From Thermoanaerobaculia bacterium (GTDB lineage: Bacteria; Acidobacteriota; Thermoanaerobaculia; Multivoradales; Multivoraceae), in NCBI GenBank assembly GCA_963664405.1, contig OY761158.1:1856001-1920000 (forward strand): a stretch of DNA of 64,000 nt, given 5' to 3'. The translations under genes were made by a program, and so were the position numbers. The notes beneath the pieces were generated by a model, which had not been told where the DNA came from, made no database searches, and was given only the letters and a program-made list of their open reading frames with translations. Positions 1,714 to 56,927 of this stretch are shown here, in pieces (position 1 is the first letter of the stretch; each line of letters opens with the position of its first letter).

Positions 1714-1878
1714 CTAGACCAGCGTTTCCAAGGTTCGTGCACATAGCTCGAGGTCATTCTGTTCGCTGGCCAGGCGCGGCGACGCAGGCATATTGGGCAA
1801 TATGTCGAGGAGGCGCAACGCCGCCAGCGGGCAGAAGGGGCCGAGATGTGTACGCGAACTTTGGAGACGCTGGTCTAG
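1714..1878 (+). repeat. CTAG-bounded palindromic element (MITE/RPE-like), subfamily A, copy 1 (165 bp)
   Basis: CTAGACCAGCGTTTCCAAGGTTCG...CGAACTTTGGAGACGCTGGTCTAG; near-identical to 5951-6116 and 8616-8781; right CTAG supplies the TAG stop of 1875..2855. Confidence 0.92.
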
Positions 1879-2855
1879 AGATCGAAATGGCAGGCCACGG
1901 TGTGGGCTTGCTCGCCGGGGGCCGCGACTTCGCGTAGCGTCGGCACCTCGGTACGACAGCGGTCCTCGGCATGGGGGCAGCGGGGGTGGAAGTGGCAGCC
2001 GGTCGGCGGATCGATCGGCGACGGGACGTCACCCTCGAGGACCTGGAAGCCGGAGCGCTTGGTAGGGTCCGGAGCCGGGATCGCCGCAATCAGGGCCTGG
2101 GTGTAAGGGTGTTTGGGGCGTTCGTAGACGTCGTCCGCGCCCGCCGTCTCGACGATCTTACCGAGATACATGATGGCGATGCGATCGGAGACGTGCTTTA
2201 CCACTGCCAGATCGTGAGAGATGAAAAGGTAGGAGAGCCCGAGATCCTTCTGCAACTCGAGCATCAAGTTGAGGATTTGACTCTGAATCGAAACGTCGAG
2301 GGCGGAAACCGGCTCGTCACAGACAACTAGCTTGGGATCGAGCGCGATCGCGCGGGCAATGCCAATGCGCTGGCGCTGCCCGCCCGAGAACTCGAAGGGG
2401 AAGCGATCCAACGAGGTCTCCGGCAGTCCGACCTTCGCAAGGAGTGCGTGGACAAGCTCTTTTCGGTCCTTTTCGGTACCGACCTTGTGGACGACGTAGG
2501 GCTCCTCGAGGATCTTGGCCACGCTATGCCGAGAGTTGAGCGAGTCGGCGGGGTCCTGAAAAATCATCTGCAGCTCACGCCGGACGCCTTTCAGCTCGCG
2601 ACGGCCCAGTTTCACCAAGTCGGTTCCATCGAAGACGACACTCCCGGCCTGGGGACGGAGCAGACGGACGATCGAGCGGCCCAAGGTGGACTTGCCGCAT
2701 CCGGACTCCCCGACCAAGCCGAGGGTCTCCCCCGCACCCACTTCCAAAGCAACATCATCGACGGCCTTACAGACCGCGGTCGCGGTCATGAACACACCAC
2801 CGCGCACCGGGAAGTAGGTCTTGAGGCCGTTGACCTCGAGCAGTGGGGAGCTCAT
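1875..2855 (-). CDS. Oligopeptide ABC transporter ATP-binding subunit (OppF/DppF-like)
   Basis: GESGCGKST Walker A, FSGGQRQR, CDEPVSALD, C-terminal GCHFHPRC and VACH motifs. Confidence 0.95.
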   Translation of the reverse strand: MSSPLLEVNGLKTYFPVRGGVFMTATAVCKAVDDVALEVGAGETLGLVGESGCGKSTLGRSIVRLLRPQAGSVVFDGTDLVKLGRRELKGVRRELQMIFQDPADSLNSRHSVAKILEEPYVVHKVGTEKDRKELVHALLAKVGLPETSLDRFPFEFSGGQRQRIGIARAIALDPKLVVCDEPVSALDVSIQSQILNLMLELQKDLGLSYLFISHDLAVVKHVSDRIAIMYLGKIVETAGADDVYERPKHPYTQALIAAIPAPDPTKRSGFQVLEGDVPSPIDPPTGCHFHPRCPHAEDRCRTEVPTLREVAAPGEQAHTVACHFDL

Positions 2856-3907
2856 GCGTCGCCGTCTCTCCGCGTGCCGGCGATCTCCCGCCAGCGAAAG
2901 CAGCTGACCTGGTGATCTCCCTCCACCACCTGGAGCTCGGGCAGCTCCGCGGCGCAGCGCTCTTCGCGGTGCGGACAGCGATTCTCGAAACGACAGCCCG
3001 AGGGCAGGTCCAGCAGGCCCGGCACCATACCCTCGATCGTGTGAAGAGGCTGTTTGCGCGGATTTTCCAATCGGGGAATGGCCTCGAGTAGGCCGCGCGT
3101 GTAGGGATGACGCGGCTCGGCAAAGATCTCTTCTACCGACCCGGTCTCGGCGATGCGCCCCGCATACATGACCACCACGTCATCGCAGGTCTGAGCGATC
3201 ACTCCCAGATCGTGAGTAATGAGGAGGATCGACAGCCCCATCTCTTCTTGCAAGTCGCTCATCAGCTTCAAGACCTGAGCCTGGATGGTCACATCCAACG
3301 CGGTGGTCGGCTCGTCGGCGATGATGAGAGCTGGGCTATTGGCCAGCGCGATGGCGATCACTACGCGCTGGCGCATGCCGCCGGACAGCTGATGAGGGTA
3401 CTCGGCGTAACGGATCTCCGGCGACGGGATGCCGACCTGCCCCAGTAGCTCGATCGACCTGCGCATTGCATCCTGCGCTGTCAGGTCCTGATGCAACAGC
3501 AGCGCCTCGGAAAGCTGTCGACCTACCGGGTGCACCGGATTGAGCGCCGTCATCGGCTCCTGGAAGATCATGCCGATGCGAGCGCCGCGGATCTTTCCCA
3601 TCTCCTCCAGAGACAGATCGAGCAGATTCTCGCCGTCGAGGAGCACTTCGCCACCCAGAATCTGCCCCATGGGCTGGGGCAGAAGACGTGTGATCGAAAG
3701 TGCGGTGACCGTCTTGCCACAGCCCGACTCCCCCACCAAGCCAACCGTCTTGCCGCGAGCGACTTTGAAACTGACGCCGTCGACAGCGTTCACCCGCCCC
3801 ACATCGGTGTCGAAGGCGGTGACCAGGTTGCGCACCTCGAGAAGATCGTCCGAGGTGGCGCTCCGATCTGCGGTTGCGTCACTCACTCCCGGGCCGGTAC
3901 TTGTCAT
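2852..3907 (-). CDS. Oligopeptide ABC transporter ATP-binding subunit (OppD/DppD-like)
   Basis: [33 protein letters not shown]. Confidence 0.95.
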
Positions 3908-6143
3908 AGGTGAAGACGCCGGGCGGGAATGTCTTCCCTGACCGCTTCGCCGCCCGGGTCTCTTCCTTCAAATCCTCGTCGATCCAGTGCACCCAGTGAT
4001 CCTCGTAGTGGCCGGCCAGCTTCACACTGAAATCGTCGGGCCAACCCACCCAGCGCCACGACCCCATGCGCAGAAAGGGCTGCACGAAGCCGGGAATGAA
4101 GATCGCCGCTTCGTCGACGATCTCCTCCATCTGACGCGACAGCTCGAGCATCTCCCCTGCATCGTCCGAGCCACGATAACGCTCGATCAGCGGATCGAGC
4201 TCACGGCTGGCGAAGGAGTGAAGGTTGTTGGTCTGGGTCTTGACCTTGCGTTCCGGGTTCACAGACCCGTCGGCAAGAAACGCTTTATCGTAGGCGTTCA
4301 CCGAATGGTAGGTCTCCCAGTAACGCGGGTACATCTCCGGACTGACCGCGAAAGCGGTGAAGACGAGATCGTGCTTCTTCTCTTGCGCCTTCTTGAACGC
4401 AGCGGTGGCGTCGAGGACCTCGAGCCGGTACTCCAGACCCGCCTGCGCTGCTTCTTCTCTCAGGATGGTGAGGATGTCCTTGAAGCTCTGGTAACCGGTG
4501 GTCAAGGTAAAAGAGAGGCGCTGCCCTTGGGCGTTGACCAGGATGCCGTCAGACCCACGCTCGTGGAACCCGGCCTTGGCAAAGCTCTCGAGGGCTTTCT
4601 CGACCGAGTAGGAGCGAGCCTCGAGCGTAGGATGAGTGAACTCTCCGTACCCATCCGAGGAGGTCCGCATGCGGGTGTAGGCACCGCGGAAGTACTTTTC
4701 GATCACCAAGTCCCAGTTGGTGGCGAAGTGGAGACCCTGGCGAATGTCGCGGTCCTCCAGCAGCGGCTGCGCCGTGTTGATCCAGAGTCCCCAAGTCGGC
4801 CGCGGGACGTCGTTATAGAACTCGTGCTTGTGAACATAGCCGTCCCGAACCAGAGGATGGTCGTCGGCGAGCTTGTCGTACCAATACTCGGGCTCTCGCA
4901 TCCGCGAACTATCCAGCTCCCCACGCTTGAACACCTCGAAGGCCTTCGCTTTGTCGCGAATGATCACGAAGTGAATGCGCTCGGGGTTGAACCTGTAGCG
5001 CCAGAACTTGTTCTCCCTCGCCCACCAGTTGTCGACGTGGGTGAAGGTGAGCGATCGTCCTTTGTGAATGTTCTCTGGACGGATCTCATAGGCACCCGTT
5101 GTCGGCATGAAACGCCACTGATAACGGTCGACGAAATCGTCGCCTAGACTCTTGAAGAAGTGCCGCGGAAGAGGCCGTAGCTCGAGGACGCGAGCGTTCA
5201 TGTCGGGCTTGGCCTCGGGCACCGAGACCGAGAAAGTGAGCTCGTCGTAGCGGGCTACCTCGGTGAAGTTGCGGTTGAAGAAATTGTTCGAATACGGCGC
5301 ACGGATGTATTTCGACTGGTAGAAGAAGAACGCGAAGAGAGCATCATCGGTGGTGACCGGATGCCCGTCCGACCAGCGAGCAGCGGGGTTGAGTCGGACA
5401 TACACCGTTCTCGTCTCGCGATCGATCGCCCACTCCTTCGCCAAGGCGGGGTAGTAGCGGTGCCCGTTGGGCCCGATATTGGTTACATTGGGATGGCGTT
5501 GGCCATAGGTGTAGAGCGTTTCGTCCTGTAGATAGCTGCGGAACGAGCCGTTGGCATCGGGGCCAACGGTACGTAGGGTGCGCGGAAAATCCGCCAGCGC
5601 CATAAATAGGGTGCCGCCCCTCTTGGCCTCCGAAGACCCGATATCGGGCAGGTCCATTCCGTCGTCCCATTCGAGGTCGGCGGGAATGTCCTCCGGTGTC
5701 CCGAAGCGAAAGAGCTTGGGAAACTCTCCTGCCGCCTGCCGCGAGTCGAGCTCCTCCTGGGTGATCTCTCCGCGCTCGAAGGCCTCGCGTACTCGAGGAG
5801 GCATCGAGACCTTGGTGCGGTAGAACTCCTCGATCTCCGCGGTGTTGTCTCTCCCTAGGTCGGGAAAGTCCATGTCTGCGCCCGCGTCGCCTGCTCCACA
5901 ACCGATCAGGAATGACCCCAGCGACACCGCCGAGATGAAGGTCCAGAGCGCTAGACCAGCGTTTCCAAAGTTCGCGCACATATCTCGGGCCCTTCTGCCC
6001 GCTGGCGTCGTTTCGCCTCCTCGACATATTGCCCAATATGCCTGCGTCAGCGCGCCTAGCCAGCGAACAGAATGCCCTCGAGCTATGCAGCACGAACTTC
6101 GGAAACGCTGGTCTAGATCTCGATTTGGCATTTGTGCCCTCAT
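3879..6143 (-). CDS. Peptide ABC transporter substrate-binding lipoprotein (YejA-like, family 5) carrying an in-frame palindromic insert in its signal peptide
   Basis: ATG 6143 just after the upstream permease stop; lipobox FLIGC; AKRGGTL, ARWSDGHPVTTDD and LEDRDIRQGL motifs. Confidence 0.88.
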   Translation of the reverse strand: MRAQMPNRDLDQRFRSSCCIARGHSVRWLGALTQAYWAICRGGETTPAGRRARDMCANFGNAGLALWTFISAVSLGSFLIGCGAGDAGADMDFPDLGRDNTAEIEEFYRTKVSMPPRVREAFERGEITQEELDSRQAAGEFPKLFRFGTPEDIPADLEWDDGMDLPDIGSSEAKRGGTLFMALADFPRTLRTVGPDANGSFRSYLQDETLYTYGQRHPNVTNIGPNGHRYYPALAKEWAIDRETRTVYVRLNPAARWSDGHPVTTDDALFAFFFYQSKYIRAPYSNNFFNRNFTEVARYDELTFSVSVPEAKPDMNARVLELRPLPRHFFKSLGDDFVDRYQWRFMPTTGAYEIRPENIHKGRSLTFTHVDNWWARENKFWRYRFNPERIHFVIIRDKAKAFEVFKRGELDSSRMREPEYWYDKLADDHPLVRDGYVHKHEFYNDVPRPTWGLWINTAQPLLEDRDIRQGLHFATNWDLVIEKYFRGAYTRMRTSSDGYGEFTHPTLEARSYSVEKALESFAKAGFHERGSDGILVNAQGQRLSFTLTTGYQSFKDILTILREEAAQAGLEYRLEVLDATAAFKKAQEKKHDLVFTAFAVSPEMYPRYWETYHSVNAYDKAFLADGSVNPERKVKTQTNNLHSFASRELDPLIERYRGSDDAGEMLELSRQMEEIVDEAAIFIPGFVQPFLRMGSWRWVGWPDDFSVKLAGHYEDHWVHWIDEDLKEETRAAKRSGKTFPPGVFTYDKYRPGSE
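5951..6116 (-). repeat. CTAG-bounded palindromic element, subfamily A, copy 2 (166 bp, in frame within CDS)
   Basis: Full element with terminal inverted repeats; reads LDQRFRSSCCIARG...NFGNAGL in the frame of the binding protein. Confidence 0.92.
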
Positions 6144-6153
6144 AGGTCGCCAG

Positions 6154-7245
6154 TCACATATAGACCGTGAACTTCTTCGGGTCGAAGGCCTCACGCACGG
6201 CCTCGCCGACGAAGTTCACCAGGGTCAAGATGAAGACCAGGGTGACGAAAGCGGAAGAGATGATCCAAGGGGAAGTGGTCAGGCTCGCCGTTCCCTGCTT
6301 GAGCAGCTCGCCGATCGAGGGAGTCGGCGGCGGAAGCCCCCAGCCGAGGAAGTCGAGGGCGGTCACGGCGACGATCGCGTTGATGACGGTCAGCGGCACG
6401 AAGGTCACGATCGTCGAAAGCACATTGGGAATGATGTGGCTGAAGATGATCCGCGAAGTTGAAGCACCGAGAACGATGGCAGCCGCCGTGTAATCCCTCT
6501 CCTTCTCGCGATAGGTGGCGGTGCGCATGTAGTAGGTCATCGATGTCCACGAGAAGAGCACCATGATGGCGAGCAGAATCGTGATTCGGGTCGGGATATC
6601 GAAGCTGGTCGGAATCACCGAGAAGACGATGATCACCATGTAGAGGAAAGGGATATTCGACCAGATCTCGATCAGACGCTGCACAAGAAGATCGAAGACG
6701 CCTCCGAAATAGCCCATCATGCACCCTAGAGAAATCCCGATCAGATAGGTCAGCGACATGAAGGCCAGCGCAAAAAGAATAGCGGTGCGAAAGCCGAAGG
6801 CGAGGCGCGCAAAGATGTCGCGGCCGGTCGAGTCGGTGCCCAGATAGTGCCTCGAGGCCAGCGAAGGCGGCGCAGGCTTGAACACTCCTTCGTAGGCATC
6901 GTTCTCATAGGCGTCGTAGGGAACGAGAGGCATGAGCACCAGGTTCTCGCCGCCTTCGCGCTCGAATCTCCGTTTGAGATCGCGATAGTCGACCGGAGTC
7001 AGCGCATCTACACCCACCGATCCGAACTCGTCACCCAGCCGCACCCGAGTGTAGGTGGGGAACGACCACTCACCCTCGTAGCGCACCGCCAGTGCACGAC
7101 TATTGATGAACACCTCACCCACCAAAGAGAGAGCGATAAAGACCACCAGGATCAGAAACGAAAAATAGCCACGTCGTATTTCTCTGAAGCGCTTCAACTT
7201 CTTTGCAGTAAGAGGGTTGAGCTTCATCGCCCAGGTCCGGCTCAA
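6154..7245 (-). CDS. Peptide ABC transporter permease (YejE/OppC-like)
   Basis: LNPLTAKKLKRFREIRRGYFSF, HYLGTDSTGRD, LDFLGWGLPPPTPSIGELL. Confidence 0.93.
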   Translation of the reverse strand: MSRTWAMKLNPLTAKKLKRFREIRRGYFSFLILVVFIALSLVGEVFINSRALAVRYEGEWSFPTYTRVRLGDEFGSVGVDALTPVDYRDLKRRFEREGGENLVLMPLVPYDAYENDAYEGVFKPAPPSLASRHYLGTDSTGRDIFARLAFGFRTAILFALAFMSLTYLIGISLGCMMGYFGGVFDLLVQRLIEIWSNIPFLYMVIIVFSVIPTSFDIPTRITILLAIMVLFSWTSMTYYMRTATYREKERDYTAAAIVLGASTSRIIFSHIIPNVLSTIVTFVPLTVINAIVAVTALDFLGWGLPPPTPSIGELLKQGTASLTTSPWIISSAFVTLVFILTLVNFVGEAVREAFDPKKFTVYM

Positions 7246-8267
7246 GAGAAGCGAATGCGCGGATCGATCGCGGCAACGAGCGCGTCGGAGATGATGTTGC
7301 CCACCAGCAGCGCCAAGCTCGACGCGAAGACAACCCCCATGACCACCGGGTAGTCTCGATCGAAGACGGCGGTCAGGCCGAGCAGACCGAAGCCGTTGAT
7401 GTCGAAGATGGTCTCGATCAGAAACGAACCGCTGACGATGAGCAAGACGTTCTGGCCGAAGGTGGTGGCGATCGGAATCAGCGAATTTCGTAACGCATGC
7501 CCGGTGACCGCCTTGCGAAACGAAACCCCCTTGGCGACGGCGGTGCGGACATAGTCGGCAGACAGGTTGTCCATGAGGTGGTTCTTCATCAACTGCGTGG
7601 TTACCGCAAAGCTACCGACGAGATAGCAGCACAACGGCAGGACCGCATGGTGCAACACATCCAAGACCTTGCCCCAGGGACTCAGAAGGTCGAAGTCGAA
7701 ACCGATGAACCCACCCATCGGGAACCACTCGAGGCGAGCGGCAAAAAAGAAAAGCAGAAGACTTCCCATCACGTAAGGAGGAACCGCATACCCCATGAAG
7801 ACGAAGATCGAGGTGACGTTGTCCATCGCACTGCGATGTTTGATTGCTTTCACCACCCCGAGCGGGATGCACACCGAGTAGGTGATGATTACCGTGGCCA
7901 AGCCGAAGAACAGAGAGATGGGCAACCGAGAGCGCATGATGTCGACTACCGGCTCGTTATACCGGTAGGACGAGCCAAGATCACCTCGGAGGACCTTGCC
8001 CAACCATTCGACATAGGAGACGAGCCACGGTTTGTCGAAGCCGTAGTACTCCTTCAGTTGCTGGATCTGCTCATCCGAGAGCGCCTGTCCCTGCCCGGAG
8101 AGCGAATTCGAGCTGCCGCCGCCAGTAGCATCGAGCTGTTGCGCTTCCATGATTGCCCGCTCGAGCGGACCTCCCGGCACCACCCGGGTGATCAGGAAAA
8201 CGACAATTGTGATGCCAAGTAGGGTCGGGGGAATTAGCAAGAAGCGGCGGATGAAGTAGTCCCGCAT
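7242..8267 (-). CDS. Peptide ABC transporter permease (YejB/OppB-like)
   Basis: YFIRRFLLIPPTLLGIT..VPGGP, DYVRTAVAKG, HALRN, IDPRI. Confidence 0.93.
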   Translation of the reverse strand: MRDYFIRRFLLIPPTLLGITIVVFLITRVVPGGPLERAIMEAQQLDATGGGSSNSLSGQGQALSDEQIQQLKEYYGFDKPWLVSYVEWLGKVLRGDLGSSYRYNEPVVDIMRSRLPISLFFGLATVIITYSVCIPLGVVKAIKHRSAMDNVTSIFVFMGYAVPPYVMGSLLLFFFAARLEWFPMGGFIGFDFDLLSPWGKVLDVLHHAVLPLCCYLVGSFAVTTQLMKNHLMDNLSADYVRTAVAKGVSFRKAVTGHALRNSLIPIATTFGQNVLLIVSGSFLIETIFDINGFGLLGLTAVFDRDYPVVMGVVFASSLALLVGNIISDALVAAIDPRIRFS

Positions 8268-8615: not shown

Positions 8616-8781
8616 CTAGACCAGCGTTTCCAAAGTTCGTGTGCAATAGCTCGAGGTCATTCTGTTCGCTGGCCAGGCGCGCCGACGCAGGCATATTGGG
8701 CAATATGTCGAGGAGGCGAAACGCCGCCAGCGGACAGAAGGGGCCGAGATATGTGCGCGAACTTTGGAAACGCTGGTCTAG
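8616..8781 (+). repeat. CTAG-bounded palindromic element, subfamily A, copy 3 (166 bp)
   Basis: Perfect 24-bp terminal IR CTAGACCAGCGTTTCCAAAGTTCG; lies between divergent genes. Confidence 0.92.
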
Positions 8782-8846
8782 GCCAAGTCGCCTGCGAGCC
8801 TGGTAGCCTGCGTGCACCAACCCAGACACCCAACAGGGGGCAAGCC

Positions 8847-10832
8847 ATGACCCAACTAGACCAGCGTTTCCAAAGTTCGTGCTGCATAGCTCGAGGTCAT
8901 TCTGTTCGCTGGCTAGGCGCGCTGACGCAGGCATATCGGGCAGCCGCCATCGACTCGTATTCGCGGCCAATTCTCACCTCTGTAGGCCCCCTGCTCGCCC
9001 TGGTGCTCGGTGTGACGGCGCTGGCGTGCAGCTCCGGCGAGCCCACCGCTCCACCGGCGGAGACCAGCTCGAGCTCGGAGAGGCCGGCTCCGAATCCACT
9101 GCGCAGCGCCTACTTCGGCGACCTTCACGTGCACACTCGCTATTCGATGGACGCCTACATCTTCGATGTCAGGGCCTCGCCCGACGACGCCTATCGATTC
9201 GCCAAGGGCGAGCCTCTCGATCATGTCAGCGGCCATCGCATGCAGCTCCAGACTCCCTTCGATTTTCAGGCGGTCACCGACCACGGCATCCTGCTCGGCG
9301 CTCTGCCGGCAATGGATGACCCGGAGGACCCGCTCTACAACGAGCCTATCGCCAAGGAGCTGCGTGAGCTGGGGCCGGCGGAAGGGTTTCAGCGCGGCCG
9401 GGAAGCCTTTGAAGGCGGAGAGTTCGAGCAGATGGATTACTCCCATGCCACGCGCTCGGCCTGGCAGCGGATCATCGAGGCGGCCGAGCGTCATAACGAT
9501 CCCGGCCACTTCACCACCTTCGTCGCCTATGAGTACACCTCGACCGCCCCTGATCAGGGCAACCTCCACCGCAACGTGATCTTTCGCGGCAGCGAGGCAC
9601 CCGAAATGCCGCTCAGCTCCGCGGACTACCCCGACCCGGAGGATCTGTGGCGCTGGCTCGACGACCTACGAGCCCAGGGCATCGAAGCGTTGGCGATTCC
9701 ACACAACTCGAACGGCAGCAACGGCCAGATGTTCCGCCTCGAGACCCTGTCCGGCGAGCCTCTCGACGCCGACTATGCCGATCTGCGCATGCGCAACGAG
9801 CCTTTAGTCGAGGTCACCCAGGTCAAGGGTACGTCCGAGGTACACCCGCTGCTGTCCCCAAACGACGAGTGGGCTGACTTCGAGATCTTCCCCTACCGCA
9901 TCTCCACCCGGCTGGACAGCCAGCCGGCCGGCAGCTACGTCCGCGATGCCTACGTCAGCGGGTTGATCCTGGAGGAGACCAAGGGTTTCAATCCCTTCCG
10001 CTTCGGTCTCATCGGGTCGACCGACACCCACAACGCGGCAGGGACCCCGGACGAGTGGCACTTCCACAGCAAAGTCGGCGCCCGCGACGGTACCCCTCAG
10101 CGCCGCGGATCGGTGCCCCTGGACGAGCCCGGAGAGGACGGCGAGCCGGCCTACGTCGATGGCTATTTCCACCTCTGGGGCGCCGCCGGTGTCGCCGGCG
10201 TCTGGGCGGAGGAGAACACCCGCGAGTCGATCTACGATGCTTTCCGGCGCAAGGAGACCTTCGCCACGACCGGGCCTCGCATCCAAGTCCGATTCTTCGC
10301 CGGTTACGACCTCGCGGAGGATCTCGCCTCGGCTCCCGACAAGGTAGCCAGGGCCTACGAAGGTGGAATACCGATGGGGGCCGATCTGAGCGCCGATGGC
10401 GAGCGAGCGCCGCGTTTTCTGCTGTGGGCGATTCAGGACCCCAACAGCGCTCCGCTCCAACGTCTGCAGATCGTCAAGGGCTGGGTAGACGACGAGGGGG
10501 GCCACGATCAGGTTTTCGACGTCGCCTGCTCCGACGGCGCGCAGCCCGACCCGGAAACCCATCGCTGCGCCGACAACGGCGCTAGCGTGGATCTTTCTGA
10601 TTGCAGCTTCTCGCGTGATTCCGGCGCGGCGGAGCTGAGCGCGGTATGGAGTGACCCCGGCTTCGAGCCCGCCCAGCACGCCGTCTACTACCTGCGAGTG
10701 ATCGAGAACCCCACTTGCCGTTGGTCGACATGGGACGCCTTGAGGGCGGGTGTGGAGCCGCGCGCCGACTTACCTACGACCATCCAAGAGCGAGCCTGGT
10801 CGTCGCCGATCTGGTTCGTTCCCGGAGGCTGA
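8847..10832 (+). CDS. DUF3604 family lipoprotein (PHP-like metal-binding motifs)
   Basis: AGGGGG then ATG 8847; lipobox ALAC; YFGDLHVHTRYSMD, AVTDH, NLHRNVIF, IPHNSNGSNG, QERAWSSPIW. Confidence 0.88.
   Translation: MTQLDQRFQSSCCIARGHSVRWLGALTQAYRAAAIDSYSRPILTSVGPLLALVLGVTALACSSGEPTAPPAETSSSSERPAPNPLRSAYFGDLHVHTRYSMDAYIFDVRASPDDAYRFAKGEPLDHVSGHRMQLQTPFDFQAVTDHGILLGALPAMDDPEDPLYNEPIAKELRELGPAEGFQRGREAFEGGEFEQMDYSHATRSAWQRIIEAAERHNDPGHFTTFVAYEYTSTAPDQGNLHRNVIFRGSEAPEMPLSSADYPDPEDLWRWLDDLRAQGIEALAIPHNSNGSNGQMFRLETLSGEPLDADYADLRMRNEPLVEVTQVKGTSEVHPLLSPNDEWADFEIFPYRISTRLDSQPAGSYVRDAYVSGLILEETKGFNPFRFGLIGSTDTHNAAGTPDEWHFHSKVGARDGTPQRRGSVPLDEPGEDGEPAYVDGYFHLWGAAGVAGVWAEENTRESIYDAFRRKETFATTGPRIQVRFFAGYDLAEDLASAPDKVARAYEGGIPMGADLSADGERAPRFLLWAIQDPNSAPLQRLQIVKGWVDDEGGHDQVFDVACSDGAQPDPETHRCADNGASVDLSDCSFSRDSGAAELSAVWSDPGFEPAQHAVYYLRVIENPTCRWSTWDALRAGVEPRADLPTTIQERAWSSPIWFVPGG
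8856..8942 (+). repeat. 5' half of CTAG-bounded palindromic element, subfamily A, copy 4 (in frame within CDS)
   Basis: CTAGACCAGCGTTTCCAAAGTTCG through GCAGGCATATCGGGCA, after which homology stops. Confidence 0.88.
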
Positions 10833-10866: not shown

Positions 10867-10934
10867 GGATGCGCCGTCCTCGGCGCCATGTTGTCTAGCC
10901 GGAGGAAATGATAGCGATCATTTCAGGAGGCTAG
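10867..10934. repeat. REP-like double-hairpin repeat (family 2), locus 1
   Basis: TGCGCCGTCCTCGGCGCCA plus CTAGCCGGAGGAAATGATAGCGATCATTTCAGGAGGCTAG; recurs at 54330-54396 and 56797-56927. Confidence 0.8.
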
Positions 10935-11592: not shown

Positions 11593-12327
11593 AGCTGGTA
11601 GCCTACGCCTCGCTCGAGGAGGCTACGGCTCTCTGCACCGCAGCCGTTGAACCATAGCCGATGGAAAAACGTGCACCCACTCCCCTTCTGACCGAAGACG
11701 AGCACGATCCTGTGCACCTCGAACGTGAGCACGGAACGTCGCCGATCTTTCTCACCTGTGACCACCCTGGGCACCGTCTCCCACGCGAGCTCGGCGATCT
11801 CGGTCTGAGTCCCCTGGAGCTTCGCAGGCACATCGGTTGGGATATCGGGGCACTTGGTATCGCCACCCGCCTGTCGAAGGAGCTCGACGCCACCCTGGTA
11901 GCGCAGCTTTACTCCCGACTGGTCATCGACTGCAACCGCAGAGTCGACGTTCCGAGCTCAATCCCCACTCGCAGCGAGAACACCGTCGTGCCGGGGAACC
12001 TCGATCTCGACCCCGGTGCCAGAAAAGCGCGCGAGCGGGCGATTCATGCTCCTTACCACGATACCGTCTCACGACTTCTCGACACGCGGCGAGACCAGCA
12101 GAGGCCCACAGTGCTCATCGCCGTCCACAGCTTCACACCCATCTACGACGGCGTATCGCGACCCTGGCACATCACTTTCTCGACCGACGAAGAGCGTTCG
12201 GTGGTGGATCCGATGCTCGACTGGCTCAGAGCCGAGTCCGACCTCGTGGTCGGCGACGGCGAGCCCTTCACGGTCGAGGACGTGGACTACACCCTTCCCG
12301 TTCACGGTATTCGCAGAGGCATACCGC

Positions 12328-12404
12328 TTGGGTTCAAGGGGTCGTCGCAACGTTGCCTTGGTGAGCAGAGTGTACAAACTCATCGAAGACTTCGGCAGGG
12401 GTTC
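12328..12404 (-). mobile_element. IS30-family terminal fragment
   Basis: 77-bp copy of 12820-12896 with 3 substitutions, including the IR GGTTCAAGGGGTCGTCGCAAC. Confidence 0.85.
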
Positions 12405-12819
12405 TGAGCGGTCACGGTTTCGTGGACACCAAGTTAAGCCCCATCGGGGCAGTTCCTATTCTGCATCAGTTCGGGTAGTCAGCTTCGGACGAGGCTGTGC
12501 GAGGTTCGGGGAGCGCAGCCTCCCTTCGGATCCGACCGCCGGTCGCGCGTGAGTTCACGCTGCCCCTTCGAAGGCCTCGGGGCTCAGGAATCCGAGCGTC
12601 GAATGCTGGCGTCTCAGGTTGTAGAACACTTCGAGGTAAGAAACCGCTTCGTCGTGAGCTCGCTGACGAGTCTCGAAGGGTCGGTCCCAGACCTCGGTCT
12701 TGAGACTGTCGAAGAAGCTCTCCAAGACCGCATTGTCATAACAATTTCCGACGCCGGACATGCTGCAGCGAAACCGCAGCTCAGCCAGCCGATCCTGGTA
12801 AGCCTTCGAGGCGTACTGC
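12405..12819 (-). mobile_element. IS3-family remnant (3' half of integrase core plus right IR)
   Basis: QYAS..SMSGVGNCYDNAVLESFFDSLKTE..FYNLRRQHSTLGFLSP; terminus GTGTCCACGAAACCGTGACCGCTCA on the minus strand. Confidence 0.85.
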
Positions 12820-14270
12820 TTGGGTTCAAGGAGTCGTCGCAGCGTTGCCTTGGTGAGCAGAGTGTACAAGCTCATCGAAGACTTCGGCAGGGGTTCTCCA
12901 GCCGAGGGTCTTGCGGGGTCGGCCGTTGAGTGCGAGCGCGACCGCGGCGAGGTCGTCGCAGGAGTATCTGACAAGGTCGGTGCCCTTCGGGAAGTACTGG
13001 CGTAGTAGTCCGTTGGTGTTCTCGTTGGTGCCCCGCTGCCAGGGGCTGTGCGGGTCGCAGAAGTAGATCGCGAGGCCGGTATCGACGCGGAGTTGAGCGT
13101 GTTGAGCCATCTCGGCGCCCTGGTCCCAGGTCAAGGACCGGCGGAGCTGCTCGGGCAGCGTGGTGATTGACACCGCGATCGCGTCACGGACGGCTTCGGC
13201 GCCGTGCCCGGCGAGGGCCGGCCCGTTCTTCACCCTCGATTCGGTCCCGTGCCCTTCCATGCGGGGCAGGTGCAGCAGCATCGTGAACCGCGTAGTGCGT
13301 TCGACGAGGGTCCCGATCGCTGAGCTCTCGAGCCCGACGATCAGGTCGCCTTCCCAGTGACCCGGCACGGCCCTGTCGCCGGCTTCGGCGGGGCGTTCGC
13401 TGATCATGATCTCCGGAGTTACAAATTTCTTGCCTCTCCCCCGGGTTCGCGCATGCGGCACTCGTAGCGCTCGCCCGGTTCGCAGGCACGCGACGAGCTC
13501 GCGTTTGAGGGCTCCTCGACCTTGGATGTAGAGCGCTTGGTAGATCGCCTCGTGAGAGATCCGCATCGACTCATTATGGGGGAAATCAATCCGAAGCCGG
13601 TTCGAGATCTGCTCCGGACTCCAGGATTTCGCCCAACGCCGATCCTGGCGACGGCCGTGCCGACGGCCGATCCAACGCACATCCGGACCCGGCACCAGCT
13701 CCCCGTCAGGCCTTGCGATCACGCCGGCGAGGCGGTTCTGCACGTACTCACGCAAGGCATCGTTCGCGGCAAGCTTGGAGACCTTCGGACGGCTGGCGCG
13801 CCGCTCCGCGTGCCACTGCGCAGTCGTGGCCCGATAAGTTACGGCACGGCTGCGAGTCGCCGCGTTGCGGCGCAGCTCCCGCGAAATCGTCGACGGTGAA
13901 CGACCCAGGCGGCGAGCGATCTCACGTACCCCAACATGCTGAGCGTGAAGGATGGCGATCTCTTCACGCTCGGCGAACGACAGATAACGCCCCGACACCG
14001 GAGCCAACGAGATAGGTCGCATTCCACCAGCTTGCCTGAACCATCTCGACCCGACAGCCGGCGACACCCCAGCCTCTGTTGCGGCGTCCTCGCTGGACGC
14101 CCCACGAGCGATCGTCTCCCAGAACCGGATCCGGTCCTCGCGCCGCGCTGTCGAGGGCCGGCCAGGTGACCGCATCTGGCCACGCATCGCTCGAATCGCA
14201 CCCTGACACTTGCCAACTCCCATCGAAACACCTCCATCACGAGATGTTGCGACGACCAGTTGAATCCGCC
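12820..14270 (-). mobile_element. IS30-family insertion sequence
   Basis: IRs GGTTCAAGGAGTCGTCGCA / TGCGACGACCAGTTGAATCC flanking a transposase. Confidence 0.92.
12826..14223 (-). CDS. IS30-family transposase
   Basis: WSPEQI, ISHEAIY, PGHWEGDL, LTWDQGAEM, PWQRGTNENTNGLLRQYFPKGTDL. Confidence 0.95.
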   Translation of the reverse strand: MGVGKCQGAIRAMRGQMRSPGRPSTARREDRIRFWETIARGASSEDAATEAGVSPAVGSRWFRQAGGMRPISLAPVSGRYLSFAEREEIAILHAQHVGVREIARRLGRSPSTISRELRRNAATRSRAVTYRATTAQWHAERRASRPKVSKLAANDALREYVQNRLAGVIARPDGELVPGPDVRWIGRRHGRRQDRRWAKSWSPEQISNRLRIDFPHNESMRISHEAIYQALYIQGRGALKRELVACLRTGRALRVPHARTRGRGKKFVTPEIMISERPAEAGDRAVPGHWEGDLIVGLESSAIGTLVERTTRFTMLLHLPRMEGHGTESRVKNGPALAGHGAEAVRDAIAVSITTLPEQLRRSLTWDQGAEMAQHAQLRVDTGLAIYFCDPHSPWQRGTNENTNGLLRQYFPKGTDLVRYSCDDLAAVALALNGRPRKTLGWRTPAEVFDELVHSAHQGNAATTP

Positions 14271-23999: not shown

Positions 24000-24316
24000 G
24001 CGGGGGCCTGATCCAGCGAAGGGTAGAGCTAGGGTCGAGAAGCGGCTGAAACACGGTCGCCCATCAGATCCTCGCCGGGAAGGGTCGCTGGTCACCATCA
24101 TCGTCAACGACTACAACTACGGCCAGTTCGTGGAACAGGCGATCGCCAGCGCGCTGGCGCAGGACTACTCACGTACCGAAGTGCTGGTTGTCGACGACGG
24201 CTCCACAGACAACTCGCGCCAGGTCATCTCCAAGTTTGGAGGAGCTATTGAGCGCATCTTCAAGCCCAACCAGGGCCAGGCTTCGACCTTCAACGCCGGC
24301 TTCCAGGCAAGCCGTG
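23989..24316 (+). pseudogene. GT2 glycosyltransferase truncated by IS21
   Basis: YNYGQF, VVDDGSTD, NQGQASTFNAGF, then IS terminus; remainder not found in window. Confidence 0.85.
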
Positions 24317-25297
24317 TGTTGGCAACGGTTGGAAAGTGAGCCACTCACCGTTTTAGAAGTGAGCCACCCCCGGCCCTAAAGCCGGTAGCTTGGTCTTGTC
24401 TACGGACTGAGCTACTGGAGGAAGGATGCTGAGGATGGATCAGGTTCATGTTATCCGTTACAAGGTGCTGGTCGAGGGTCGGAGCCGGCGTTCGGTGGCT
24501 CTAGAGCTGGGTGTGAGCCGGAATACGGTTCGTAAATACTTGGAGGTGAGTGAGCCTCGGCGCGTGGAGTCGGTGGCGCGCCGTCGTCGCGTGCTTGAGG
24601 GTGTAGCGCCGCGTCTGGGAGAGCTTTTCGAGGAATGGTCGAAGCGGACGACTCGAAAGCAGCGCCTGACCGGGACTCGTCTTCACCGCCAGCTGGTTGA
24701 GGAGGGTTTCGAGGTCGGAGTGACGACGGTCCGGAGCTACTTTCGGGAGTGGAGGCGGCAGCGCCAGGAGGCGTTTATTCCGTTGGTGCACCGCCCGGGC
24801 GAGGAAGCGCAGGTAGATTTCTTCGAGGTCACGGTCGAGGAAGAGGGCTCAGTTCACCGGGTATGGAAGTTCGTGTTGCATCTTCCCTACTCGGGTCGTT
24901 CGTTCGTGTGGCTGTACGACCATGCGGACCGGGTGTCGTTCTTGGATGGTCACGTTCGCGCTTTCCAGCTGCGTATTCCGATGAATCTGGACAGTCGTTC
25001 CGATTCAATCTGGACAGTGATCGGAGCGAAGCGACGCTAGGGTGATCCTCAGCTTTGAGTGTCCGGTTTGAGCTCGGTTTCCTCCCTTCTTCTAGTTGTG
25101 AATGGATAGGCCGTCGTCGTGGCCGGCAAGGCTGTGGGAAACGCGTAGCGTTTTCCAAGAGGGGTGGGAGGGTGCGGGTTCGGGCGCAGCCTTCCATGCC
25201 TCGTCAGACCGCCGGCCGGGGGTGATGGGGGTCCGGGGGAAGAGGGGGACAATTTCCACAAGTGCGGCATCGTCCATCGTTTTTTCGGAGCCAGCTC

Positions 25298-26068
25298 TCA
25301 TGAGGCAGCCTTCGTCCTCTTCGGGTCCCCGGCTGTGCGGCGGGCTCGTTTGCGCCGCATCGACTCGCCCTTCAGCTCGAGGACGTAGGCGCCGTGGATG
25401 AGGCGATCGAGGATGCCGTCGGCGAGTGTTGGGTCGCCGATGACGTCGTACCATTTCTCGACCGGGAGCTGACTGGCGAAGATCGTCGAGCGTCGCCCGT
25501 AGCGATCCTCGAGGATCTCGAGGAGATCTCGCCGGTCGAGGTCGCCCAAGGGAGCGAGCCCCAAGTCATCAAGCACCAAGAGATCGGTGCGAGAGAAGCG
25601 TCGGAGCAGGCGCTCGAAGCTGCCATCACCGCGGGCGATCTCGAGCTCTCGAAACAGCCGCGGCACTCGTAGGTAGAGAGCCGTGAAGCCCTCCTGGCAG
25701 GCTTTGTGGGCGAGAGCGCATGCCAGATAGGTCTTACCGATTCCGGTCGGACCTACGATCAAGGTATTCAGATGCTCGGCGATCCAACGGCAGCTCGCCA
25801 GCCGCAAGACCTGCGAGCGATCCAATCCACGCCGGGTGCGCAGATCCAGGTCCTCGATCGTCGCCTGCTCCCTGAGCTTGGCCCGTCGGAGTCGGCTCTC
25901 GAAGAGTCGACTCGCGCGCTCCGTCGCTTCCCGCTCAACGAGAAACCCCAGGCGCTCCTCGAAGCTCAGCTCCCCGATGTCCTTCATCTGAAGCTGCTCC
26001 TCGAAGGCGCGGACCATGCCGTGCAGCTTCAGCTCGGCCAGTTGATCCATCGTCGGATGCCTCAGCAT
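25298..26068 (-). CDS. istB: IS21 helper ATPase
   Basis: GPTGIGKTYLA, LLVLDDLG, DPTLADGILDRL, LKGESMR. Confidence 0.95.
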   Translation of the reverse strand: MLRHPTMDQLAELKLHGMVRAFEEQLQMKDIGELSFEERLGFLVEREATERASRLFESRLRRAKLREQATIEDLDLRTRRGLDRSQVLRLASCRWIAEHLNTLIVGPTGIGKTYLACALAHKACQEGFTALYLRVPRLFRELEIARGDGSFERLLRRFSRTDLLVLDDLGLAPLGDLDRRDLLEILEDRYGRRSTIFASQLPVEKWYDVIGDPTLADGILDRLIHGAYVLELKGESMRRKRARRTAGDPKRTKAAS

Positions 26069-27621
26069 CTCGGGACCTCCTCGCTACGGGGCGCGTAGTA
26101 GCCGGCACCACGGACATTGTCGTGGTCCACGACACGCTGGGGCTCAGGCTCAGGCGGAAGTGGTTGCTGATCGAGGCCCGTACGCAAAATCGACTTGACG
26201 CTCTGGTAGGAGATCGAGCCGATCCGCAAGGCCCGCTTCGAAGCCGCCTCGAGTCGCTCTTGGCCATAGCGCTCGCCGAGGCGCATCAGACCCAGACACG
26301 AGCGAAAGCCCTGCTGCGGATGGGTCCGAGTGCGCAGGATCGCCTCGACGAGCTCCGCGGTCGACTCGCCGCTCTCCTCGGCCCACTTCACCAAGCGCAC
26401 CGGCGTCCATTCCAGGTACGCCTGGTGCGAGCGAGGCATGTGCTCTTTGAGAGTCGTATGGTGACCGAGTCGAGAGTCGCGGCAATGGGCAGCGACCCGC
26501 CTCGTTTTGCGGAAGATCTCGACCGTCTTTGCCGTCGAGCGCAGGTCGAGCTCCTCGCGGATCAGCTGGTACGGGACGCTGTAGTAGTGGCTCTCAAACT
26601 CGACGTGGTAGTCGATGCCGACTCGGACCTTCTTCCAGTCGGCAAATTCGTAGGGCTGGGCCGGGAGAGGCCTCAGTGCCTCCTTCTCGACCTGCTCAAA
26701 GAGATCCCGTCGCGAGACTTTCAGGATCTTCAGCGGGCGGTTATTCAGATCCTCGAGCCGCTCGCGAATCGCCGCATTCAGCTCGCCCAAGCTGAAGAAG
26801 GTCTGTTTGCGCAGACGGGCCAGGATCCAGCGCTCGACCTGCTGCACCGCATTCTCGACCTTGTCTCGAGGCTTGCGCACCCGAGCCGGCAAGATCGCCA
26901 GCGAGTAGTGGTTGGCCATCTCCTCATAGCTGCGATTGAGCCCCGGCTCGTACCAGCACGGACGCGGCACGGCCGTCTTAGGGTTATCCGGGACCACCAG
27001 CTCCGCCACCCCACCAAAATATTCGAAGGCCCTCCGGTGGGAGCCGATCCAGTCGGGAAGGGTCTGGCTCCCCGTCGCTTCGGCGTAGATGAGCTGGCTC
27101 GCTCCCAGCGCCGCGACAAAGATCTGCGCCTCATCAATCTCGCCACTCTCGCGATCTCGAATGTCGACCGTCTGGCCGGCGTAGTCGACAAAGACTCGTT
27201 CTCCGGCCTTGTGATCCTGGCGCAGCGGCATGTCTAGGCGACCCTCGTAGAGCCGGTACAGCTGACAGAATCGGCTGTAGCCGTAGCCCTCCGGATGCGC
27301 CTCGCGGTACTCCTGCCACAGCAAGGCCAGGGTCATGCCTTTGCGCCGAAGCTCTCGATGCATCTCTGCCCAGTCCGGCAAGGGTCTGGCCGAAATCCCT
27401 GCGGCAAGCTCCGTTGGGAAGAGCTTCGATTCGAGCGCCTCCTCGTCCATCCCTTCGACTTCATCCCAGCCTACGCCTGTGGCCTCAGCTCGCATCACGT
27501 AGTCGCCCACCGTGCCGTGGCCCAGCTTCAAACTCCGACCGATCTGCCGGTACGACAGACCCAAAACCCATCGCAGTCTCAATACGTCTCGTATCTTTCG
27601 CATCGCTGTCCTCGCTCGCAC
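26062..27621 (-). CDS. istA: IS21 transposase
   Basis: MRKIRDVLRL, LLWQEY, YGYSRFC, FVDYAG, VPDN, YYSVPY. Confidence 0.93.
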   Translation of the reverse strand: MRARTAMRKIRDVLRLRWVLGLSYRQIGRSLKLGHGTVGDYVMRAEATGVGWDEVEGMDEEALESKLFPTELAAGISARPLPDWAEMHRELRRKGMTLALLWQEYREAHPEGYGYSRFCQLYRLYEGRLDMPLRQDHKAGERVFVDYAGQTVDIRDRESGEIDEAQIFVAALGASQLIYAEATGSQTLPDWIGSHRRAFEYFGGVAELVVPDNPKTAVPRPCWYEPGLNRSYEEMANHYSLAILPARVRKPRDKVENAVQQVERWILARLRKQTFFSLGELNAAIRERLEDLNNRPLKILKVSRRDLFEQVEKEALRPLPAQPYEFADWKKVRVGIDYHVEFESHYYSVPYQLIREELDLRSTAKTVEIFRKTRRVAAHCRDSRLGHHTTLKEHMPRSHQAYLEWTPVRLVKWAEESGESTAELVEAILRTRTHPQQGFRSCLGLMRLGERYGQERLEAASKRALRIGSISYQSVKSILRTGLDQQPLPPEPEPQRVVDHDNVRGAGYYAPRSEEVPRC

Positions 27622-29076
27622 CCTCTCGCCCTCCTTTGTGAAGGCAAGATCGACCCACGAGGACCACACCCGCGTCAACCCCGTCGAGGCGCCGGATTCC
27701 AATTCAATCCGGACACCCATTCCAATCCAATCTGGACACCGATTCCAATCGGCGGTCTCAACTGTCCGAATTCGATCGGAATCACTGTCCGATTCGAATC
27801 GGAATCGATGTCCGATTTCGATTGGATTCACTGTCCGGTTTCAACCGGTGCACGCACCAGCTGCTGGGTGGTGTTCCTCGCCGTTGCGTTTACGACAATT
27901 TGAGCGCCGCCGTTCGTCGCCGGGTGGGTTCTGAGCGCGTGCTGACGGATCGATTCAAAGCCCTTGTGAGCCACTACTTGTTCGAGGCTTGCTTCGCTCG
28001 TCCCGGTGAAGGTCACGACAAGGGGAGCGTGGAGTCTCGAGGCAAGGGCCTGCGCCTGGCTGAGATCTCGGCGTCGTTGCTCGGGTCGGTGGAGTCGAGC
28101 TGGCGCAGGAAGGGGCTCTCGAAATGGGAGGAGGAGCTTCAGGGCATGCTCGAGCTGCCGCAGTTCGCATTCGATCCCCGGCTGCCGGAAGTGGTGCGAG
28201 TCTCTCGCCAGGCGATGGTGCAAGTGGGCAAATCGACGTATTCGGTGCCGTCGAGGTGGAAGAATCTGCAGATCACGGCGCAGATCGGTGTCGAGGAGAT
28301 CACGTTTCAATGCCGCGATGAGGAGTTTCGCTGTGCTCGGATCCGCCGAGGGAAACGGGAGATCCGCTACTCCCACTACTTCGACGAGCTGTCCAGGAAG
28401 CCACAGGCCGTCCGCCAAGTGGCTCCTGAGCTCTTGGCAGAGCTCGGGGAGCCGTACCAAAAGCTCTGGAAGATGCTGGATTCTCGCTATGGAGCATTGG
28501 AGACAGCGAGGCTCTTTGCCAAGCTGTTGGGAGCCGTCATCGACCAGGGCCACGAGGACGTGGCGGCGGCACTCGAGGAGGCCTTCCTCGCCGGCCGCTT
28601 CAATCTGCTGGCTCTGCAGCTGCCTGTCGAGCCGGTCACCAATGAGATTCCCGAAGGCCTGAGAGAGCACGAGATCGAATCCGCTCGAGCTGCCGACTTC
28701 GACGCGCTCCTTGACGGGGCGGTGTCATGAGCCGTGCCCTCCGCCGAGCGGTGATGCAGGAGAATCTGCGGACCTTGAAGCTTCCCTCGGTGCTTCGGGA
28801 CTACGAGGATCGAGCCCGACAGGCCCAGGACGGCCAGTGGGACTACGAGGACTTCCTGCGTGATCTCTGGACCCTTCGAACTGCTGATGGTTTCCTGACG
28901 GAGGCCTTCTAAACTCTCCCTCCGAGCAGGGTCCGGGCTGTAGCCGCCTGTGGAAAACCGGTGGAAAAGAACCAAGAAAGGAGTTATGCTGATCGCTCGC
29001 CCATTGCGGTCTTCGGCTCTTGAGTTGCATAACGACGTTCTCTAGGTGCGCTGGTGAGGGGGGGGTAGTGTAGTCG

Positions 29077-34122: not shown

Positions 34123-34245
34123 GGCGCTGTGTCTCGTTCCGTAGTCACCGAGTGGAAGCCGAGACCCTCCTGCGACGCAGCAGGGCTCCGCCAACCGTTA
34201 AGATGCATTCGCTCATGATAGGACAACAACGTGCACCCTGAGGCC

Positions 34246-35412
34246 ATGTCGAATCGTCTCGTCAGCATCATTGTCAACAACTTCAACTACGAGCGGTTCT
34301 TAGGAGAGGCGATCGCAAGCGCTCTCAGTCAGACCTACGAGCCAAAGGAAGTGCTCGTTGTCGACGACGGTTCAACAGATGGCTCGCTTGATGTCATCTC
34401 GAGCTTTGGGGCGAGCGTCAAGCCGATCTTCAAGACCAACGAGGGTCAGGCTTCTACCTTCAACGCCGGCTTCGAGGCCTCTAAGGGAGAAGTGATCATC
34501 TTTCTCGATGCTGACGACCTCTTACTTCCCGAGGCGGCCATGCACGCTGTTCGTGTGCTCGAAGAGCCTGACGTCGTCAAGGTCCATTGGCCGATGTGGG
34601 AGATCGACGAAAACGGCAACAACACCCGGAGGTTTCACAAGAAGTCTCTGATCGATGGGGACTACCGCGAGGAGTTCATCGCTCGCGGCCCCATCGCGTT
34701 GTCTCAGTCACCCACGAGCGGTAACGCCTGGCCGAGATGGTTCCTAGAGAAGGCCATGCCCTTGCCAGAGCACGAGGATCGTCACGGTGCGGATGGATTT
34801 CTCAAGAAGCTCTGCCCGATTTATGGGCCGATCCGGCGTCTCGAGATACCTCTTGGTTGCTATCGTCTACATGCCGGGAACTACGGTGGTGGTAGCGGCA
34901 CCTTCTTCAAGTTGCGGCGCTCACTTCGCCGCTACCCGGCTTACTGTCGCCTTCTCGAAGACCACTTGCGGCGAACGGGAGTTGACGCCGACTCGGCGGC
35001 TTGGATGGGCCCTGGTAGTTCCTTCGAATGGCTGGAGATGGCGGTTGAGCTTTTCGACGAGCTCGAGCGATTGGTCCCTCAGGACGCAGAAGTGGTACTG
35101 ATCGACAACGGCAAGTTCGGGTCCGAATTACTACCCGGACGAGAGCTAAGACCCTTAGTTCGGGGCAGCGATAGGATCTGGGGATCGTCTCCTGAAAGTG
35201 ACGAGCAAGCTGTAAGGGAGCTCGAGCGTGCGATCGATGCGGGGGCGCAATATCTGGCGTTTGCGTTTCCGGCGTTCTGGTGGCGCGAGTCGTTCCCGCA
35301 CCTTCTTCGCCAGGTCGAATCTCGCTTTGAACGCCTGTGTGCGAACGAGCGGCTCGTCCTCTTCGACCTCGAAGCCAACGCGACGGATGGTGTAGAAGGC
35401 GGCGGCCGATGA
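34246..35412 (+). CDS. GT2 glycosyltransferase with shared C-terminal domain
   Basis: NNFNYERFL, VVDDGSTD, FLDADD, YRLHAGN. Confidence 0.9.
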   Translation: MSNRLVSIIVNNFNYERFLGEAIASALSQTYEPKEVLVVDDGSTDGSLDVISSFGASVKPIFKTNEGQASTFNAGFEASKGEVIIFLDADDLLLPEAAMHAVRVLEEPDVVKVHWPMWEIDENGNNTRRFHKKSLIDGDYREEFIARGPIALSQSPTSGNAWPRWFLEKAMPLPEHEDRHGADGFLKKLCPIYGPIRRLEIPLGCYRLHAGNYGGGSGTFFKLRRSLRRYPAYCRLLEDHLRRTGVDADSAAWMGPGSSFEWLEMAVELFDELERLVPQDAEVVLIDNGKFGSELLPGRELRPLVRGSDRIWGSSPESDEQAVRELERAIDAGAQYLAFAFPAFWWRESFPHLLRQVESRFERLCANERLVLFDLEANATDGVEGGGR

Positions 35413-54333: not shown

Positions 54334-54396
54334 GCTCCACAAATGATAAATATCATTTGCTCCGCCTAGTTGTTTTCTGGCGCCGAGGACGGCGCA
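54330..54396. repeat. REP-like double-hairpin repeat (family 2), locus 2
   Basis: CTAGGCTCCACAAATGATAAATATCATTTGCTCCGCCTAG plus TGGCGCCGAGGACGGCGCA; first CTAG contains the gene stop. Confidence 0.75.
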
Positions 54397-56220: not shown

Positions 56221-56386
56221 CTAGTGCCCTGTACCAGTAGTTCGTCACATAACTCGCTGGCCCTTTTGCGGCCTGCCGTCGTTGCGCCTCCTCGAAATAT
56301 TCCCAATATGACTTCGTCGGCGCGCCTTGACAGCCCACAAAATGACTGCGCGATTTATGCAACGAACCACTGGTACAGGACACTAG
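56221..56386 (-). repeat. CTAG-bounded palindromic element, subfamily B (166 bp)
   Basis: 32-bp imperfect IR CTAGTG(T/C)CCTGTACCAGT(G/A)GTTCG; core AGGCGCGCCGACG-AG-CATATT-GGG-AATAT-TCGAGGAGGCGCAACG shared with subfamily A. Confidence 0.88.
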
Positions 56387-56796: not shown

Positions 56797-56927
56797 GGAG
56801 TGCGCCGTCCTCGGCGCCATGTTCCGCATCCGGAGGAAGTGATACCGATCACTTCCGTAGGATGCGCCGTCCTCGGCGCCATGTTCACTAGCCGCAGGAA
56901 ATGATAGCGATCATTTCCGGAGGCTAG
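56797..56927. repeat. REP-like double-hairpin repeat (family 2), locus 3, two tandem units
   Basis: TGCGCCGTCCTCGGCGCCATGTT at 56801 and 56863, each followed by a GGAARTGAT..ATCAYTTCC hairpin. Confidence 0.82.

Follow-up and report, generated by a model that had tools for sequence, protein, structure and literature searches.

Bacterial miniature transposable elements with inverted repeats (MITEs) that carry open reading frames and become fused to genes are established. The portion of a review drawn on here names the Rickettsia palindromic element (RPE), the 107-bp Correia element and ERIC (PMC2229807), and that of a second paper adds YPAL, which is also fused to genes (PMC2759123). The 64,000-nt stretch analysed here, from a Thermoanaerobaculia bacterium (contig OY761158.1, positions 1,856,001 to 1,920,000; the window), contains an element of this kind, a 166-bp MITE that lies in frame within the signal-peptide region of a gene for an ABC substrate-binding lipoprotein. 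In-frame insertion of a MITE is already known; what stands out in the sequence comparisons, on small numbers, is the apparent avoidance of stop codons across the family and the repeated siting of copies in signal-peptide n-regions.

The element resembles RUP of pneumococcus, Correia/NEMIS of Neisseria and ERIC in being less than 200 bp, with terminal inverted repeats, TA termini and a long stem loop. RUP offers an IS630-linked precedent, in that its ends match an IS630 element, as is found here (PMC2229807). According to the same portion of that review every one of the six frames of RUP contains stops, whereas the present element keeps both CTA frames, those in which the CTAG of the target site is read with CTA as a codon, open across diverged subfamilies. 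It differs further from RUP, Correia and ERIC in its 58% GC, its three interchangeable end types and its concentration in signal-peptide n-regions. The RPE of Rickettsia is a hairpin found in frame in conserved protein genes with function retained (gmk), and two insertions within protein bodies described below (P0124 and P0126) are RPE-like. RPE is 105–146 bp and Rickettsia-specific, and the review, in the portion used, names no transposase for it (PMC2229807). The present element is outside this size and host range: it is 166 bp, has an IS630-matching end and has relatives in Acidobacteriota and Vicinamibacteria records, and the place where it is most often found intact within a gene is a cleavable leader. 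The likeness to RPE put forward in a sequence-only reading of this locus is thus one of behavior, an in-frame hairpin fusion, and not of identity, because the ends tie the element to IS630. YPAL (RU-2) of Yersinia is also palindromic, about 168 bp, with a 56-codon open frame and fusions to open reading frames (ORFs) that include a predicted signal peptide, YPO1552 (PMC2759123). As described in the part of that paper used here, YPAL lacks TA termini, has duplications of 3–26 bp and supplies hydrophobic sequence as part of a new signal sequence; the present element is hydrophilic in the leader orientation and extends pre-existing n-regions.

The copy at 5951–6116 has CTAG at both ends (Table 1) and folds as a single long hairpin with a delta G of -109.1 kcal/mol (z -13.2). 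Covariation over eight copies supports the hairpin, with two-sided change in 31 of 68 pairs. The properties used to recognize bacterial MITEs are present, i.e., a length below 200 bp without a transposase, terminal inverted repeats, a long stem loop, dispersed copies and an empty site. The A+T-richness stated for most MITEs is not seen, as the element is 58% GC in a window of 62%; YPAL is also an exception in this respect (PMC2229807, in the portion used). The host gene gains a net 162 nt, or 54 codons free of stops in the gene frame, a count that the element coordinates and the translation bear out. The sequence-only reading arrived at it by subtracting one CTAG as the duplicated unit. The 162 nt hold either way, but TA within CTAG is a likelier duplicated unit than the entire CTAG: TA is at both ends in all eight aligned copies, and the C-TA-C at one end of the L009 copy is in keeping with TA duplication. 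Members of the IS630 family prefer CTAG, although the literature check confirmed TA duplication only. Since IS630-family elements duplicate TA (PMC2170065, in the part available), the element itself probably measures 160 bp, to which the duplicated TA in a CTAG site is added.

The host-gene product scores 137.5 bits with Pfam SBP_bac_5, and many of its homologs from JGI carry the label microcin C transport substrate-binding protein. The gene is the third of five in its operon. The closest homolog, P0001 (696 amino acids; 674 of 694 positions identical, 97%), lacks the insert, and the empty site is known from this protein, i.e., at the amino-acid level. The six N-terminal residues of P0001 are those encoded from ATG 6131, which is likeliest to be the native start, rather than ATG 6143 as first read. 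The latter was set aside as main start on the basis of ortholog length and the absence of a clear Shine-Dalgarno motif; the region around it is the most open one, with an opening cost of 7.0 kcal/mol. With ATG 6131 as the native start, the insert follows codon 6. Comparison with an ortholog had been named as the way to tell whether the element is merely intergenic, and since P0001 starts upstream of the CTAG insertion site, the element is intragenic. A scan of positions 5800–6300 for promoters and terminators found none.

Removal of the insert in silico yields the leader noted in the sequence-only reading, with the lipobox Cys present. This Cys is residue 24 in P0001 and residue 78 in the insert-bearing protein. 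The h-region of the insert-bearing leader has a 12-residue hydropathy of 2.12, and the motif is identical in the ortholog. A lipobox-like motif is found in 117 of 120 homologs, with the Cys at a median position of 24 and a range of 6–53, of which a few at the early end are probably spurious. In the mature part, 16 of 673 positions differ from the ortholog; with 60 of the 120 homologs aligned, six changes are window-derived, seven are ortholog-derived and three are unassigned. None of the six is in a column conserved at 90% or more, and such columns are 41% of the total. This is a weak sign of kept function because the changes may predate the insertion.

Table 1. Positions of the element, its host gene and the other copies within the window
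Feature	Coordinates	Strand	Remarks
Host gene, family-5 ABC substrate-binding lipoprotein, YejA-like	3879..6131	-	Reading frame intact; 750 codons, insert included
Peptide ABC transporter operon, intact	1875..8267	-	Five genes: two permeases (YejB/YejE-like), binding protein, two ATPases
Likeliest native start, ATG	6129..6131	-	GAGG motif 5-6 nt upstream; aligns with first residue of ortholog
In-frame ATG further upstream	6141..6143	-	10 nt past permease stop; no clear Shine-Dalgarno motif; possible minor start
Signal-peptide h-region and lipobox, untouched	5898..5950	-	Cys codon 5900-5898
MITE copy, 166 bp, whole-length hairpin	5951..6116	.	Minus-strand in-frame reading gives 54 extra codons; profile match 138.9 bits
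Terminal inverted repeat, 24 bp	5951..5974	+	24/24 identical to downstream end of IS630 element in L003/L006/L008
Second terminal inverted repeat	6093..6116	-	23/24 complementary to first
In-element in-frame ATG, hairpin 3' arm	5979..5981	-	Predicted occluded; 8 nt after AGAAGGG
MITE copy, 165 bp	1714..1878	.	Its end gives TAG stop of last ABC ATPase
Full MITE copy, 166 bp, intergenic	8616..8781	.	9 nt upstream of DUF2277 start
Half copy, 87 bp = 29 codons	8856..8942	+	In frame after codon 4 of DUF3604 protein with lipoprotein-type leader (ATG 8847)
Diverged MITE copy, 166 bp	56221..56386	.	Core kept, terminal repeats different (67% identical); just upstream of ABC-F gene

Copies were surveyed by scanning genome contigs with the 24-bp end, which listed at least 10 loci (L001–L010), and the window copies were added; the counts of copies that follow refer to this set. 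There are five copies in the window and at least seven more in six of the loci, whose record titles name Acidobacteriota, Vicinamibacteria or an uncultured bacterium. The full and half copies at window 8616–8942 are 240 bp apart between divergent genes, and the half copy stops at the hairpin apex. The ABC-F gene next to the diverged copy is presumably EttA-like. Three end types are present on one core (window 5951, window 56221 and L002 2860–3025), all at 166 bp, and these interchangeable ends suggest end swapping between IS630 transposases. The end identical to that at window 5951 is directly downstream of an IS630 transposase gene in three of the loci (L003, L006 and L008; Alphaproteobacteria metagenome-assembled genome), and in the two loci scanned the transposase scores 211–213 bits against an NCBIfam cut-off of 100. 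The IS630 element in L006 spans 1284 bp and is bounded on both sides by CTAG; only the first 8 bases of its other end are in common with the MITE end. In L005 there is one matching end, and neither the MITE core nor a transposase is recognizable. An end resembling the window-56221 type is found at L007 3830–3869, and L007 ~4035–4159 has the left end and first codons of what we take to be an IS630-like element, cut by the contig end. A blastn search of plasmids with two element copies gave no record covering 80% of the query (best E 0.1–0.5).

The openness of a single frame is within chance, as 14.5% of 5000 dinucleotide shuffles are open in the 54-codon gene frame. All four non-TAG frames are open in copy 5951–6116, which is the case in 3 of 5000 shuffles and is partly peculiar to that copy. 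The 11 complete or nearly complete copies comprise eight of 166 bp, 60–97% identical to each other, and three that are off-length (165, 179 and ~167 bp; window 1714–1878, L010 2501–2679 and L001 1–163). In none of the eight does the CTA frame of either strand contain an internal stop, whereas the other four frames of the same DNA have 5, 10, 12 and 4. These 31 stops are at 17 distinct sites, all outside the CTA frames; (2/3)^17 = 0.001. Under neutral substitution on the tree of the copies (length 0.96), 5.2–11.2 of 14 non-root frames are expected to be closed, and all 14 stay open in 0–8 of 1500 simulated runs in each of eight settings. The 166-bp length and the openness are also kept through a compensating pair of indels. 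All three off-length copies are on a gene's TAG stop, a position at which frame is irrelevant, with insertion contexts judged by eye from six-frame translations. Of the 46 unoccupied non-stop CTAG sites in 50 hand-listed window genes, 34 are in the CTA frame, which makes it the more frequent target within genes. Stop avoidance at the family level and the fixed net length of 162 nt would make most in-gene CTAG insertions non-truncating, and an insertion at a CTAG stop codon would restore the stop.

Twelve copies were sampled as DNA: six intergenic, three at stops and three in genes. The three in genes are all in lipoprotein-type n-regions, those of the binding protein, the DUF3604 protein (half copy) and the sulfatase of L009, where the copy follows codon 6. 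No start codon is present between the half copy and its h-region. The 46 unoccupied in-gene sites are all outside n-regions as read here; site 14343 would count if the farthest ORF start is real. The Fisher p value for n-region enrichment is 0.021 for the window with the binding-protein case excluded and 0.0009 when L009 is added, which mixes genomes.

Two profile searches with the element peptides matched 17 distinct proteins. The insert is in the signal-peptide n-region in five: P0127, which is the window half copy (DUF3604), P0134 (DUF3604), P0136 (amidohydrolase), and P0135 and P0137 (TPR, probably one locus). In P0137 about 26 extra residues break the element peptide, apparently a second insertion within the MITE with the frame kept. 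Three others have the insert inside the protein body, i.e., P0123, P0124 (PIN domain) and P0126 (FAD monooxygenase), in the last of which it is placed between the two Pfam domains; in P0122 the insert is 17 residues from the C-terminus. P0122–P0124, P0134 and P0136 are probably from the genome of the window. The sister genome, that of P0001 and P0126, appears to have the element, but not at the binding-protein site. In a phmmer search of 1.84 billion representatives, the peptide encoded by the insert gave five matches, three already found and two by chance (unrelated repeat proteins), and therefore the peptide is not considered a protein domain.

Six separate loci, then, have the element between a start codon and an h-region: the binding protein, window 8856, the L009 sulfatase, P0134, P0136 and P0135/P0137. 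The orientation is the same throughout and the encoded peptides are basic (+5, +10) and hydrophilic, with a maximum 12-residue hydropathy of 1.0–1.1 in the leader orientation. The ortholog comparison refers to the binding protein, and the other leaders are read from sequence. The proposal of the sequence-only reading that the n-region is a safe harbour for the element is supported by these loci. Neither the element family nor an n-region preference was found in the literature covered, in which subscription journals and supplements were mostly out of scope. The accessible parts of bioRxiv 10.1101/2024.01.18.576219, PMC6053426 and PMC5009743 contain nothing specific to the family; the supplementary MITE catalogue of the first could list it.

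We consider it probable that a non-autonomous MITE mobilized by IS630 inserted at the CTAG of codons 6–7, that the leader is discarded together with the insert, and that the family is frame-neutral and survives in n-regions. An IS630-family transposase acting in trans would have moved the MITE into this site. Translation would begin at ATG 6131 and continue across the hairpin, giving a prolipoprotein with a predicted leader of 77 residues, of which 64 form the n-region with a net charge of +5. A Tat signal was considered and set aside, as the RR pair of the insert is out of the consensus context. Lgt lipidates the Cys of a lipobox and LspA cleaves just before that Cys. With the lipobox intact, the Cys would be lipidated and signal peptidase II would cut off leader and insert, leaving a mature protein that is unchanged and probably less abundant. 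Among in-gene insertions those in n-regions would survive best because the added peptide is discarded; the peptide itself would have no function of its own other than camouflage. A broader and more tentative proposal, to which we give somewhat less than even weight, is that the MITE family has been selected as a codon-neutral cassette of 54 codons, with a stop-free common frame in either orientation, self-restoring at stops, swapping ends and mainly in n-regions.

Several points weigh against this account. The 15 residues that precede the h-region have a net charge of -1, compared to +1 for the whole n-region of the ortholog, and the Cys at residue 78 is outside the range of the 117 homologs. 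The -109 kcal/mol hairpin starts after 16 nt of coding sequence; ribosomes could stall at it, or it could be a target of RNase III, which is reported to cleave Correia elements (PMC10969869, in the part used). No transposase with matching ends is found within the 64-kb window. The sample is small, at least 10 loci, and the frame test is made on eight copies picked for 166 bp, with the half copy and the three copies of other lengths set aside. Neither indels nor pairing constraints enter the simulation, hairpin symmetry makes the strands partly dependent, and the lineages are few. The n-region cases that come from proteins hinge on the start choice of gene callers, the three protein-body insertions show that the n-region is not the sole refuge, and the remaining 8 of the 17 profile matches are frameshifted, terminal or probably spurious.

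It is unlikely that the insertion instead silences or cripples the gene by way of the hairpin, RNase III or poor export. The event would then be recent and the transporter dispensable, which is why a silenced allele could persist, and exported proteins, being often dispensable, would collect insertions. A very stable hairpin immediately after the start is in keeping with this, as are the rise in opening cost for positions -15 to +18 from 10.0 to 16.3 kcal/mol, the loss of n-region charge beside the h-region, and the 16 differences in the mature part, which are too few for dating decay. However, gene and operon are intact, and the opening cost of ATG 6131 over -15 to +13, 11.4 kcal/mol, is inside the range of 7.6–15.9 for 11 other starts in the window. 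Silencing also leaves unexplained the stop-free frames and the placement upstream of the h-region, when two CTAG sites in the mature part of this same gene are unoccupied. Similarly improbable, in our view, is that the open frames merely follow from ancestry, composition and hairpin symmetry, and not from selection for insertions that do no harm, in an ordinary MITE whose n-region cases reflect survivorship. The copies are of common ancestry, covariation shows that the hairpin is constrained, and 9 of the 12 DNA-sampled copies are intergenic or at stops, where frame is irrelevant. A by-product does not readily account for stops being confined to the other four frames of the same DNA, or for a 166-bp length held over three end types.

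Translation could also restart inside the element, the replacement start suggested in the sequence-only reading. The in-element ATG 5981 is real and in frame; it would give a 27-residue leader, which is of normal length, perhaps once RNase III or an unwinding ribosome has released the 3' arm; with the 5' arm gone the opening cost drops to 12.0 kcal/mol. An internal Met is also found in the other frame used in signal peptides (P0134–P0137). This ATG is buried in the stem at a cost of 38.1 kcal/mol in the intact mRNA, and a leader from it has no Lys or Arg. The ATG of the arm is out of that frame in L004 and L007 and absent from L002a and L009, and the half copy and L009 are signal-peptide insertions with neither an in-element in-frame ATG nor, between element and h-region, a usable start. 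Restart is thus judged quite improbable, more so than silencing. Least probable by far is that the insert is skipped, either by a ribosome hop between the duplicated CTA codons or by excision of the hairpin from the RNA. Target duplication gives matched in-frame codons around a strong stem loop, two features of bypassing (PMC7026636, in the portion used). In programmed bypassing of T4 gene 60 the take-off codon is followed by a stop; here matched CTA codons for take-off and landing occur, but there is no such stop and the frame is open throughout. A skipped sequence would not need a stop-free frame, frame-2 insertions exist, and no Rfam family, introns included, is matched in the window.

Other repeats and mobile elements are present in the window. 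A second repeat family consists of a CTAG-bounded hairpin of 37–40 bp together with 17 bp of GC-rich flank and is found at the ends of genes or close to them (window 10867–10934, 54330–54395 and 56798–56927; L009 957–994; L010 2676–2712). Its three window sites overlap stop codons, and it is possibly an IS630-derived or REP-like element. At 12316–14223 an IS30 transposase (above cut-off) is beside an integrase-core remnant; there, a direct repeat of 90 bp, with units at 12316 and 12808, leaves an N-formylglutamate amidohydrolase gene truncated. IS21-type istA/istB break up a glycosyltransferase/sulfotransferase cluster, and the glycosyltransferase fragment ahead of istA/istB resembles the gene at 34231 (the observation covers 24088–27831 and 34258–34478). 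A 300-bp repeat (84%) at 43976–44275 and 51039–51338 represents two paralogous carboxypeptidase-regulatory-like genes, which flank a MacB/HlyD efflux cluster where three membrane-fusion genes follow each other in tandem.

The single insertion in the binding-protein gene is ordinary MITE biology; the interest is in the apparent avoidance of stops and in the recurrence of signal peptides as insertion sites, which are based on small numbers. In-frame MITE fusions are known, and selection on open frames and tolerated protein sites has so far been argued from anecdotes. The element family provides a countable test with an internal control, the other frames of the same DNA, and indicates the signal-peptide n-region as a refuge for in-frame MITEs. 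The insertions are natural alleles for probing the length and charge that are tolerated in the n-region of Sec/signal peptidase II substrates. For annotation, such inserts mask lipoprotein signals and mislead start-codon calls. Inteins and self-splicing introns are likewise mobile DNA within coding sequence; what they encode is taken out, and the host protein is normal. No self-splicing is proposed for the present element, and its removal would be by host signal peptidases and from leaders only. If the proposal of a codon-neutral cassette is true, it would represent an intein-like escape from selection that uses the host export machinery and not splicing.

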